A DNA stretch of 64,000 bases from Candidatus Bilamarchaeaceae archaeon (lineage in GTDB: Archaea; Micrarchaeota; Micrarchaeia; Anstonellales; Bilamarchaeaceae), in the NCBI GenBank assembly GCA_038851325.1, contig JAWCKZ010000002.1:44935-108934 (forward strand), in the 5' to 3' direction. Below the pieces are notes generated by a model, which made no database searches, was not told the origin of the DNA, and saw nothing but the letters and a program-made list of their open reading frames with translations. The position numbers and the translations under genes are program-made. How positions within the stretch are numbered: position 1 is the stretch's first letter; each line of letters opens with the position of its first letter. Positions 17,859-20,756 of the stretch are shown here, one piece after another.

Positions 17859-18752
17859 ATGGGAAAAGGTGTAGGAAGAGGAAAGGTTATTCTTTTTGGA
17901 GAGCATTTTGTTGTTCACAGCGTGCCTGCAATAGCGGCAGGAATAGATAACTCTGCGATTGTTGAAGTTAAAAAAGCTGAAAAAAATAGGATAATAACAA
18001 AACAGAATATCGTACCTGAGTTAAGTCTTGAGGGCATACAACTGGTGTTGGACGCCATGGGCATAAAAGATAAATACGATGTTTATCTAGACGGAGACCT
18101 TCCAACATTTGGAGGGCTTGGTTCATCAGCTGCCTTTTGCGTTGCGCTGGTGCGGGCAGTGGCCGAGGATAAAGGTATCGTTCTGACGGATGAGGAAGTG
18201 AACAGATACGCGTACGAGGGCGAAAAGGCGTTTCATGGCAGCCCTTCTGGTATTGATAACTTGATGGCCACGTATGGTGGAATAATAATCTTCAGAAAGG
18301 GACGCGGGGAGAGCTATTTCGAAAAAATAAACGCAGGAAAAAAGATGGACATAGTTGTTGGATTTACAGGAAAGCTTAGCCAAACGAAAAAGATGGTTGA
18401 GTTGGTGAGAAAATTTAAAGAGGAGGACCCCGATCATTGGGTGCAACTTGCTGTTCAGGCTGCCGATGTTGTTTACAGAGGAAAGAATGCGATTGAGAAG
18501 GGGAAGCTCGAGGAAATAGGAAAGCTGATGAATGAGAATCAGGTGCTGCTGTCCGAAATTGGTGTTTCTGACGAATTGAATGAGAAAATGGTAAAAATAA
18601 TGCTTGATGCTGGTGCGTTGGGCGCTAAGCTTACAGGTGGCGGTGGGGGAGGATGCTGTATCGCGCTTGCGCGCGACAAAGTGGCGGCTATAGGGATAAC
18701 GATGGCTCTAAAAAAGGAGAAGTTTGAGTCGTTTATAACAAGAATAGGATAA
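17859..18752 (+). CDS. mvk: Mevalonate kinase
   Basis: GKVILFGEHFVVH, GGLGSSAA, HGSPSGID, GAKLTGGGGGG. Confidence 0.92.
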   Translation: MGKGVGRGKVILFGEHFVVHSVPAIAAGIDNSAIVEVKKAEKNRIITKQNIVPELSLEGIQLVLDAMGIKDKYDVYLDGDLPTFGGLGSSAAFCVALVRAVAEDKGIVLTDEEVNRYAYEGEKAFHGSPSGIDNLMATYGGIIIFRKGRGESYFEKINAGKKMDIVVGFTGKLSQTKKMVELVRKFKEEDPDHWVQLAVQAADVVYRGKNAIEKGKLEEIGKLMNENQVLLSEIGVSDELNEKMVKIMLDAGALGAKLTGGGGGGCCIALARDKVAAIGITMALKKEKFESFITRIG

Positions 18753-18940
18753 AAACACGCAAACTGAAAATTTTTGGATACAAAGAAAATGTCACGGCCG
18801 AGAAAGCAGAAAAAAGCTTTCCCATGTGTCCTTAAGTCCTGAGACGCTAAACAGAAAGCTCAAAACTGAAAACTGACTTAAGGCCACAGCCGAGAAATTC
18901 ATAAGAGAATTTTTCGGGCGTGCCTTGAACGAAGTTCAAG

Positions 18941-19248
18941 GGCCACGGCCGAGATTCGAACTCGGGTCTAGGGCTATCAGCAGGGTTTTTGCCCTCAGAA
19001 ACACCGAAGACAAAAAGCCCAACACACCCAGAGGAGAAACCTCAGGGCTTTTTCCAGGGTTTTTGCCCTCAGAAACACCGAAGAAACCTCAGGGCTTTTT
19101 CCAAACGGTATTTAGCTCCTGAGACAGTCCTTAGGTCATAAGCACCTGCTTAGGAGCCAAATACCGTTTCCAGGGTTTTTGCCCTCAGAAACACCGAAGA
19201 CAAAAAGCCTCCACAGGCCCCCATGCTAACCACTACACCACCGTGGCC
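18941..19248 (-). tRNA. tRNA-His(GUG) with encoded G-1 and a 235-nt intron at 37/38 (18976..19210)
   Basis: Exons join to G-GCCACGG TG GTGT AGTGGTTA GCAT G GGGGC CT GTG G|A GCCCT AGAC CCGAG TTCGAAT CTCGG CCGTGGC C; all stems pair. Confidence 0.93.
18981..19209. repeat. Direct and inverted repeats inside the tRNA-His intron
   Basis: 30-mer cagggtttttgccctcagaaacaccgaaga at 18981, 19055, 19171; 22-mer agaaacctcagggctttttcca at 19035 and 19082; inverted repeat aaacggtattt (19103) / aaataccgttt (19159). Confidence 0.95.
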
Positions 19249-19410
19249 ATGAGCGAAGCGAATGGCCAGACTTGAACGAAGTTCAAGAAGATGGTCATAA
19301 GGCCGCGGGCATTGTCCAAATAGTTGGTCAATCCAACCGCGGCCATAATGGGAAAGTTTAAAGATATTGTATTAGAAGTATTTAAATAAGTTAAACAAAG
19401 GGGGATTTGA

Positions 19411-20106
19411 ATGACGACGCTTGATAAAGCGATCATCGCTTCTTATGAGAAAGAGGGAAAGCGATTCGAGCTTTACGTAGATCCTGAGGCTGCGTATGCC
19501 TACAAGGAAGGACGGAAGCCAGACCTAAAGAATATACTTGTTGCAGAGGAGGTATACGAGAACGCAAAGAAGGGCGAGCGAGCAAAGGTATCAGATATCC
19601 AAAAGGTCTTCGGGACCACTGACATAATGAAGATTCTTGAGTTGGTGCTTAAGGAGGGAGAAGTACAGCTTACAACAGAGCAGAGAAGAAAAAAACAGGA
19701 GGAAAAGAGAAAACAGATAATTGCAATATTGGCAAGGGAGGCGATAGACCCGCGAACGAAGGCGCCCCATCCTCCACAAAGAATAGAGAGCGCGCTTGAG
19801 CAGGTGCGTATTCAGATAGACCCGTTTAAGGATGCAAGGGAGCAGATACCTGCGATAGTCAAAGAACTCATGCTTATACTTCCAATGAAGTTTGAGAAGG
19901 TAAAGGTGGCCGTGAAAATACCGCCGCAATATGCGCACCGGTGCTATGGAACAATAAAAAGCTATGGTATACAGAAAGAGCAGTGGCAGTCAGATGGCAG
20001 CCTTATTGTCGTTGTTGAAATCTTCGCAGGTGCGCAGGGAGAATTCTACGACAAGCTGAACAAGATGACTGCCGGCAGCGTCGAAACAAGGGTGCTTGAA
20101 GAGTGA
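19411..20106 (+). CDS. Ribosome maturation protein SBDS/Sdo1
   Basis: GKRFELYVDP, GEVQLTTEQRR, IDPRTKAPHPPQRIE. Confidence 0.95.
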   Translation: MTTLDKAIIASYEKEGKRFELYVDPEAAYAYKEGRKPDLKNILVAEEVYENAKKGERAKVSDIQKVFGTTDIMKILELVLKEGEVQLTTEQRRKKQEEKRKQIIAILAREAIDPRTKAPHPPQRIESALEQVRIQIDPFKDAREQIPAIVKELMLILPMKFEKVKVAVKIPPQYAHRCYGTIKSYGIQKEQWQSDGSLIVVVEIFAGAQGEFYDKLNKMTAGSVETRVLEE

Positions 20107-20756
20107 GAGAAATATTTTCTGGTGTTTGGGAAGAGGACCATGAGTTATTAACACAGAATCTTGTTCCAGGCAAAAAGGTGTATAATGAGCGATTACGCCG
20201 TGTCAGCGATAGGGAGTACAGAACATGGAATCCATACAGGAGCAAGCTCGCCGCTGCGCTGAAAAAAGGGCTGAGGACTTTTCCATTTGCAAAGAATGTA
20301 AAGGTCCTTTATCTTGGTGCGTCTACAGGAACTACTGTTTCCCATCTTTCAGATATAATAATCGAAGGAGAGGTATACGCTGTAGAGATTTCGCCTCAGG
20401 CAATGAAAAGCTTGCTTGCAGTAGCTGAGCACAGGGGAAATATAATTCCCATCCATGGAGACGCAAGAAAACCGCATGAATATAAAGAAGTCGGAAAGGT
20501 TGACGTGATTTATCAGGATGTCGCTCAGCCAGATCAAGATGAGATACTGATTGCAAATGCGAAGATGTTTCTGAAGAAAGACGGAATAGCAATGATTGCA
20601 ATAAAGAGCCAGAGCATAGATGTTACGCTTGAGCCGAAGAAAGTTTTCGAACGCGTGTTAAAGAAGCTGGCTGAGCATTTCGAAATCCTTGAAATGATAA
20701 AACTTGAGCCCTTTGACAAGGACCATCTTTTCGTTGTGCTGAGGTTTAAGGGCTGA
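20103..20756 (+). CDS. flpA: Fibrillarin-like rRNA/tRNA 2'-O-methyltransferase
   Basis: YRTWNPYRSKLAAA, VLYLGASTGTTVSHLSD, DVIYQDVAQPDQ, LEPFDKDH. Confidence 0.96.
   Translation: MREIFSGVWEEDHELLTQNLVPGKKVYNERLRRVSDREYRTWNPYRSKLAAALKKGLRTFPFAKNVKVLYLGASTGTTVSHLSDIIIEGEVYAVEISPQAMKSLLAVAEHRGNIIPIHGDARKPHEYKEVGKVDVIYQDVAQPDQDEILIANAKMFLKKDGIAMIAIKSQSIDVTLEPKKVFERVLKKLAEHFEILEMIKLEPFDKDHLFVVLRFKG

Follow-up and report, generated by a model that had tools for sequence, protein, structure and literature searches.

The modular 235-nt intron of a Micrarchaeota tRNA-His gene, probably grown by duplication and insertion of repeats shared with other tRNA introns

Background

Most archaeal tRNA introns are a few tens of nucleotides long, and the canonical BHB introns, which lie at position 37/38, are cut by EndA and joined by RtcB. 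The origin, growth and spread of archaeal tRNA introns are poorly understood: the Thermoproteales, which provide the only large data set, show the end result and not the steps. Near-identical introns that are shared by, or "transposed" across, isoacceptors are described for the Thermoproteales (Fujishima et al. 2010, as summarised in PMC4090602 and PMC3239211). ARMAN-2 (Ca. Micrarchaeum acidiphilum) has disrupted tRNA genes, with many introns that include some in the T-loop, and a broad-specificity epsilon2 endonuclease that cuts relaxed BHB motifs; its assayed introns are 13 and 25 nt long, and no modular or repeated introns are described (PMC3239211). The tRNA-Thr(GGU) gene of Caldiarchaeum subterraneum is heterogeneous within its population, with a 1.8-kb recombinase-encoding element and the gain of a whole intron (PMC3293823). 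The tRNA-Trp intron with its box C/D sRNA, finally, is about 100 nt long, structured and has a function of its own (PMC4090602).

The locus described here is one at which steps of growth can be read: the tRNA-His intron is 25-41 nt long in sister species and 119 nt long in two strains, yet it reaches 235 nt in a strain separated from one of those two, over 5.7 kb, by just 3 other base differences. Our reading, which taken whole we hold to be probable, is that this is a functional-looking tRNA-His gene, that its BHB intron has grown by duplication and by insertion of a hairpin element (H), that its modules are shared with other tRNA genes, and that it would be spliced in one step.

The gene, its host and its setting

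The sole tRNA gene of the window (the whole 64-kb stretch of DNA that was analysed) is a complete tRNA-His(GUG) gene on the minus strand at 18941-19248, split at 37/38 by a 235-nt insert at 18976-19210. The complete tRNA-His(GUG) and the extent of the insert had been claimed in a first-pass annotation made from the letters alone, and ARAGORN, with introns allowed (-i), agrees: its call, c[18940,19247], is a tRNA-His(gtg) interrupted at 37/38 by 235 nt.

19211-19248, minus strand: 5' exon of tRNA-His, nt 1-37, with G-1 at 19248 and anticodon GUG (ARAGORN -i); identical in L038, L044, L046 and L047
18941-18975, minus strand: 3' exon of tRNA-His, nt 38-73, with C73 at 18941 and CCA not encoded (ARAGORN -i)
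17859-18752: GHMP kinase, neighbour of tRNA-His
19411-20106: SBDS protein, neighbour of tRNA-His
20103-20756: fibrillarin, neighbour of tRNA-His

In the 73-nt tRNA-His(GUG) that results from joining the exons (19248-19211 and 18975-18941), G-1 is encoded and faces C73, the D arm is normal, the anticodon loop reads CUGUGGA, and a T arm is present. Removing the intron thus restores a canonical cloverleaf (ARAGORN -i), and the predicted join, CUGUGGAGCCCU, is found as such in an intronless His gene of another organism in metagenome run X4. Default ARAGORN, and Rfam at gathering scores, call no tRNA at 18941-19248, a miss that reflects the limit on intron length and not the absence of the gene. 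Since default tRNA finders overlook it, completeness and tRNA-complement statistics will wrongly score the lineage as being without tRNA-His.

Judged from its sequences, the host is a hot-spring Micrarchaeota (DPANN) archaeon: among species-representative genomes the best matches of its SBDS protein are in Micrarchaeota/Bilamarchaeaceae (at most 78% identity), and DNA of the locus is present in hot-spring metagenomes of two studies. None of 34 GTDB relatives located through SBDS has a tRNA-His gene within 3 kb of it; the synteny is therefore confined to the closest lineage. Between SBDS and tRNA-His the block TAATAsAATATCTTTAAACTTT (19345-19400) is kept in the window and in L038 and L044 (3/3 syntenic loci) and is probably a divergent TATA/BRE promoter region; inserted hairpins make it lie anywhere between 50 and about 100 nt from the tRNA. 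In the MAG L048 (GCA_038848875.1, positions 1-232) all similarity ends about 47 nt before the start codon of SBDS, and the place holds no tRNA-His gene; either the contig is chimeric or the shared promoter has been the site of a rearrangement.

Repeats and tRNA fragments in the flanks

The gene is bracketed by two copies of a 24-nt repeat.

18917-18940: 24-nt repeat that abuts the discriminator base on the 3' side of the gene and includes the palindrome CTTGAACGAAGTTCAAG
19264-19287: second copy of the 24-nt repeat with the palindrome CTTGAACGAAGTTCAAG, in the 5' leader

The copies are 88% identical and are the only two in 64 kb. The upstream one lies 15 nt from G-1 (its palindrome ends 22 nt upstream of G-1), and the leader of L044 holds two similar palindromes, TGAACGA...TCGTTCA. 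The palindromes are possibly a processing signal, a terminator or the scar of a duplication; the idea that they form a BHB was rejected, as they make just a 3x3 internal loop.

Downstream of the gene, the 3' end of tRNA-His (acceptor and T-arm strand) recurs in incomplete form, at 18788-18805 and 18880-18897 in the window; similar copies lie about 46 nt 3' of tRNA-His in L047 and about 75 nt 3' of it in L044. They look like att-site remnants of elements formerly integrated into tRNA-His or like decayed tandem copies of the gene. The surrounding sequence is itself variable: the 159 nt from the kinase stop codon to the tRNA trailer (18753-18911) are missing from an X4 strain and from L047, and in run X5 the sequence 18756-18937 is replaced by 22 nt. 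That 159-nt stretch holds a hairpin (18825-18838/18875-18888) that is weakly similar to H, and an AAACTGA microsatellite (x4, 18849-18876). On the other side, between the shared promoter region and the tRNA, a minihelix GGCCGCGG...CCGCGGCC at 19296-19343 (foldable on either strand; -25.5 kcal/mol, z -4.6) has ends that resemble the tRNA-His acceptor stem, with a compensatory change of A-U to G-C; L044 has GGCCACGGTTG at the same place. The minihelix may be the remnant of a tRNA-His copy, or a small RNA.

Anatomy of the intron

The insert is built of modules, which in RNA sense follow each other in the order a, A1, H, B, A', B, X, A3, CUGAU.

18976-19210, minus strand: intron at the canonical position 37/38 (ARAGORN, repeat search)
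19171-19209, minus strand: module A1, a 39-nt hairpin whose 5' strand would pair with the 3' strand of A3 as the inner helix of the BHB
19104-19172, minus strand: 69-nt insertion with hairpin H (stem 19103-19169), absent from L046 and L047
19082-19103, minus strand: second copy of module B
19055-19084, minus strand: module A', a copy of A without its first 9 nt (RNA sense), which belongs to the 47-nt tandem duplication
19035-19056, minus strand: module B (22-mer), 3'-proximal copy, forming a small hairpin jointly with X
19020-19034, minus strand: spacer X
18981-19019, minus strand: module A3, identical to A1
18976-18980, minus strand: intron tail CUGAU, from which, together with the preceding G, come the 3' bulge and the 3' strand (GCUG) of the BHB's central helix
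19055-19170, minus strand: the 116 nt by which the window exceeds the 119-nt allele (L046/L047), in a register that is ambiguous within a 34-nt repeat

The first-pass annotation had picked out the main elements, and repeat search and folding uphold them: a 30-mer in three copies, the outer pair matching over 39 nt (18981-19019, 19171-19209 and 19055-19084), two copies of a 22-mer (19035-19056 and 19082-19103), and a hairpin at 19103-19169, which is an inverted repeat 19103-19133/19139-19169 with 31-nt arms, that is, a 67-nt near-perfect palindrome. The outer copies do fold on themselves, as had been said (A, -18.6 kcal/mol, z -4.3), and the remark that deleting everything between them would leave about 45 nt is arithmetically right (235 - 190 = 45). 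The 39-mer, 22-mer and inverted-repeat patterns had no match in 100 dinucleotide-preserving shuffles of the window. H also folds alone (-35.6 kcal/mol, z -6.8), as does B-X (-12.4 kcal/mol, z -2.2), and the precursor as a whole is far more structured than its shuffles (z -7.6). The 69-nt insertion is bracketed by the direct repeat TTTCCA, at 19098-19103 and 19167-19172.

Spacings of 74 and 116 nt between the repeats led to a model in which a 74-nt tandem unit, A+G+B+X, has been altered by indels. (TRF, run on the locus, does not detect a 74-nt array; the indels blind it.) The model was derived from the spacing before L046 was known, and the 119-nt allele turned out to be exactly one unit plus a second A.

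Relatives and the splice junction

The first-pass annotation had also proposed a comparison with the tRNA-His introns of related genomes, and this comparison proves informative: introns of 25, 30, 41, 96-97 and 119 nt occupy 37/38. L038 and L044, JGI contigs to which a search with the 5' exon led, are syntenic with the window and closer to it than the representative genomes (SBDS 80-82% identical to the window's); they carry introns of 41 nt (AGGUUUUUUG...GCAAAAACCCGCCGCC) and 30 nt, respectively, both at 37/38, both starting with AGGUUU and ending with CAAA(AA)CC plus a tail. One strain in run X4 has a 25-nt intron at the site. These 25-, 30- and 41-nt introns of syntenic relatives share not only their site but also their outer helix with the window, and the shared starts and ends imply that what is now the outer stem of A was ancestrally the inner helix at the splice sites. 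Two distant relatives, L042 and L045, have His introns of 96-97 nt with a common start, GGGCUUUUUG, and a common string, GGCCAAAAACCCCGGAAAAAGGC, which is the window's A-3'/B junction in 21/23 nt.

In the model of the splice motif, the helix 27-31/39-43 is followed by a central helix in which 32-35 pair with the four nucleotides before the intron's last two, with 3-nt bulges at both cuts. Over seven alleles 85.6% of the cells of this model pair; sliding the partners by 1-3 columns lowers the figure to 38-55%. Compensatory changes occur in four pairs, and two others, C32-G and G34-C, never vary. The window's own version is relaxed: its central helix is 3/4 (a U33.U mismatch), and there is one extra U opposite the 5' bulge. 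The change of the tail from GCUG to GCGG in L047 (also in X4) completes the central helix to 4/4, and that of L044 is 4/4 as well. As modelled, the splice junction fits a relaxed BHB that is conserved across the seven alleles.

How would splice sites 235 nt apart be brought together? The predicted long-range fold, A1 with A3, equals the local hairpins at 37 C and is 3-4 kcal/mol better at 60-75 C, for the 119-nt and the 235-nt allele alike. The 5' half of A1 would pair with the 3' half of A3, bringing both splice sites into the relaxed BHB; the interior between A1 and A3 would fold as separate hairpins and be carried along as passenger sequence. From this folding model we infer that the splicing endonuclease removes the entire 235-nt intron in one step. 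(The study's only metatranscriptome has no contigs on the tRNA-His locus.)

Interruptions of tRNA-His outside 37/38 also turned up among distant Micrarchaeota. L039, L040, L041 and L043 have a T-loop insert of about 14 nt, a second, non-canonical intron, and L045 carries, besides its 96-nt intron at 37/38, a T-loop insert of about 80 nt after GTTCGAA. ARAGORN fails on these T-loop-intron genes (L039-L041, L043, L045) or mislabels them.

Length alleles and the growth of the intron

Two independently assembled genomes carry a 119-nt intron in the same gene: L046, with 3 mismatches to the window over 5.7 kb (99.9% identical), and L047, about 98.3-99.4% identical. In RNA sense their allele reads a + A + G-B-X + A + CUGAU, and the window's intron differs from it by two additions, a tandem duplication of 47 nt (19035-19081 and 19082-19197) whose joins show UCU microhomology and the 69-nt insertion of H, which sits inside the second copy of the duplication: 119 + 47 + 69 = 235. 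Expansion by duplication or insertion of a small repeat element, one of the origins suggested in the first-pass annotation, thus accounts for the length exactly. Other states of the array exist: intact 74-nt tandems are found in runs X7 and X5, and run X8 has a shortened A remnant between two copies of B.

The growth looks, from these alignments, very recent, given that near-identical genomes carry 119 nt and sister species 25-41 nt. That the boundaries of the indels fall at microhomologies suggests slippage, recombination or gene conversion between paralogous introns, all at the level of DNA. The following order of events, and their DNA-level origin, are inferred from the alleles. The ancestral intron would have been a short hairpin of 25-45 nt, with the outer stem GGYUUUUUG/CAAAAACC serving as the inner helix of the splice motif. 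In this species it would have become the 119-nt tandem array a + A + [G-B-X] + A + CUGAU, and in the window's strain there would have followed, at the DNA level, the further 47-nt tandem duplication with its UCU microhomology and the insertion of the palindromic, MITE-like 69-nt H between 6-nt direct repeats, for a total of 235 nt.

The modules in other tRNA genes

Module A is not confined to tRNA-His. In run X1 the depth of the unitig internal to A is 34, to which a variant with one mismatch adds 15, whereas the unique flanks have 7.1-7.6; the ratios are similar in X3 and X4, and they correspond to about 3-7 copies per genome equivalent. Logan contigs that start in A run past the first base of the intron into the 5' halves of other tRNAs. 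A can be placed firmly, on its contig sequence, at the start of the Val-GAC intron: a+A runs into the 5' half on a single clean contig, the same in X3 and X4. It probably also starts the Ala-UGC intron, to judge by a 6.4-kb X4 contig of an Ala-UGC-like gene, in which a-A-H-B (about 91% identical) is followed by more intron sequence. In X1 another two or three tRNA 5' halves are linked to A; their consensus is blended, and they are left unnamed here. At least 31 nt (a + A) abut position 37 in the His, Val and Ala-like genes. H likewise is multi-copy in the metagenomes, with variants, and stands in at least three contexts in X1.

Searches elsewhere set bounds on the family: blastn-short with all modules against the window and L001-L037 found no further copies; in L035-L052, copies of A and X-B occur only in the tRNA-His introns of L046 and L047 and at the ends of L049 and L050 (Logan contigs that break inside A), and H has no match; a scan of JGI metagenomes with a 24-mer of A, and scans of viral contigs with A and with H, gave 0 matches.

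The modules would then form a small family of repeats from which introns of further tRNA genes of the population are built as well, and their occurrence in several tRNA introns implies either intron spread or gene conversion between tRNA genes. That the A-bearing tRNAs belong to the same genome is suggested by similar depth only, the contigs being those of a mixed community.

Alternative readings

Is the 235-nt arrangement real? Neither the junction 19084|19085 nor that of a full B into H, nor the base 19127G, is present in any Logan contig of six runs or in any indexed run. It might be that the strain really has 119 nt and that the assembly has threaded in the extra 116 nt (A'-B-H) from another module-sharing tRNA intron, and several observations agree with this: 119 nt is found in two independent assemblies, one of them (L046) with the 3 mismatches in 5.7 kb already noted; runs X1 and X2 contain all k-mers of the 119-nt allele and lack the window-specific junctions; and the adjacencies A-H and H-B exist at other loci. 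We nevertheless regard such an artefact as unlikely. The junction CCGAAGA|AACCTC shares just 3 nt (AGA) between its two source contexts and so must derive from real reads and not from a mis-walk of the graph; the longest exact repeat, 39 nt (46 nt with shared flanks), is shorter than the final k of the usual metagenome assemblers; 19127G, missing from 6/6 runs, points to a different source sample and not to mis-threading of those data; and Logan contigs drop low-coverage bubble paths, which makes the absence of the window's junctions weak evidence. The 235-nt allele is probably real; its exact arrangement is that given by the window assembly alone.

If the length is real, other accounts of it can be weighed against one-step splicing of an intron grown at the DNA level. 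The first-pass annotation had suggested nested introns spliced stepwise. On such a reading the paired A copies would form a second BHB, and the inner 190 nt (74 nt in the 119-nt allele) would be removed first, or also, leaving a 45-nt intron. A scan for BHB motifs does rank A1:A3 at the top: its central helix, GUGU/GUGU, is 4 bp long, the bulges are UUC (3 nt), the helices on either side measure at least 6 bp and at least 8 bp, and the cuts lie exactly 190 nt apart; the long-range duplex is thermodynamically favoured at 60-75 C, and the same RNA-level reaction, run in reverse, could account for the gain of modules. What stands of the suggestion is that two A copies, paired in trans, can form a 3-4-3 BHB-like motif. 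The stepwise splicing itself we consider quite improbable: the central helix consists of four G.U pairs; any hairpin that is repeated twice yields a symmetric internal loop, with a chance of about 0.14 that the 4-mer is self-complementary; several registers tie in score; and the predicted cut, after position 21 of A, matches neither the edges of the 47-nt duplication (A position 12/13) nor those of H (after A position 39). A more radical form of the idea, to which we allow a slim chance, makes A a self-propagating splice-site cassette: any two copies of A would pair into a second BHB, and endonuclease and ligase would excise, and in reverse insert, A-bounded RNA, the product being fixed by reverse transcription or recombination. 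If true, it would account at once for the step-by-step lengthening seen here and for the presence of A-type introns in further tRNA genes, and would provide a first mechanistic handle on the gain of archaeal tRNA introns. The length alleles amount to a natural experiment on the load of passenger RNA that a BHB intron can bear, and on growth at the DNA versus the RNA level.

Could the modules instead be kept because they are themselves a functional RNA: a stable circular intron, an array of protein-binding hairpins, or a guide RNA like the tRNA-Trp C/D-box sRNA? They are strongly structured, their copies are identical and common to several tRNA genes, and the A-3'/B junction is conserved (the 21/23 nt) in the distant introns of L042 and L045. 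Yet box C (RUGAUGA) is missing, the CUGA motifs have nothing to form a k-turn with, Rfam offers chance hairpin matches only, copy number and arrangement differ among 99.9%-identical strains, and close relatives manage with 25-41 nt; we find the proposal very doubtful. A box C/D sRNA in particular was rejected, the sequence holding six CUGA motifs with neither box C nor k-turn, and so were group I and group II introns, for which the insert is too short and which Rfam does not report, whether at gathering scores or with E allowed up to 10 (where only chance, miRNA-like hairpins match). It is harder still to credit that this is a decaying copy of tRNA-His, disabled by insertions, with another His gene doing the work. 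Partial tRNA-His copies (18788-18805, 18880-18897) and the minihelix at 19296-19343 around the locus do speak of a history of duplication and decay. The exons of the gene itself, however, are intact and identical to those of its relatives, G-1:C73 is present, the pairing of the splice junction is kept and in L047 even improved, and the same gene stands at the same place in L038 and L044. The last origin offered in the first-pass annotation, the scar of an integrated element, was abandoned: the 39-nt repeats are part of the tandem unit, and only H resembles an inserted element. An integrase-mediated insertion with duplication of an att site was rejected because these repeats are present in the 119-nt allele as well and because the 151-nt interior consists of hairpins and lacks any ORF with homologues; when all six frames of the intron were searched as protein, with spurious ORFs called on sister introns in view, nothing matched, and a coding ORF was likewise rejected.

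Comparison with known systems

The preferred reading, a BHB intron grown by duplication and insertion, leaves the locus close to canonical BHB introns in its essentials: the position is the same, the exons join to a normal cloverleaf, and the helix-bulge-helix-bulge-helix of the junction is conserved. It differs from them in its 235 nt (119 in the sister strains), in the repeated hairpin modules inside and in the relaxation of its BHB. Relaxed BHB motifs are shared with ARMAN-2, of the same phylum, as are T-loop introns (L039-L043, L045); in ARMAN-2 the enzyme that cuts such motifs is epsilon2. As in the tRNA-Thr(GGU) gene of Caldiarchaeum, one tRNA gene is found in differing intron states in a natural population, with tRNA fragments nearby; here, in contrast, there is no protein-coding element, and the changes are short duplications and a 69-nt palindrome within an existing intron. 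In contrast to the tRNA-Trp intron, this one has no box C, k-turn or Rfam match.

H resembles MITEs in being a 67-nt near-perfect palindrome with a 6-nt direct repeat, in having multi-copy variants and in being present or absent between strains. It departs from them in that all copies seen adjoin A or B, and in that the TTTCCA direct repeat overlaps the ends of the palindrome. Being always beside A or B, it may spread with the array rather than transpose independently, and we know of no partner transposase for it.

The closest known kind is the shared intron families of the Thermoproteales. The likeness lies in near-identical intron sequence in tRNA genes for different isoacceptors (which here, to judge by similar depth only, belong to one genome), and the differences are three: 1) the host is a DPANN Micrarchaeota archaeon; 2) all the introns of the family seen here are at the canonical position; and 3) modules are combined and multiplied within one intron, with growth visible between strains that are 99.9% identical. 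The finding stays within BHB introns and their shared families.
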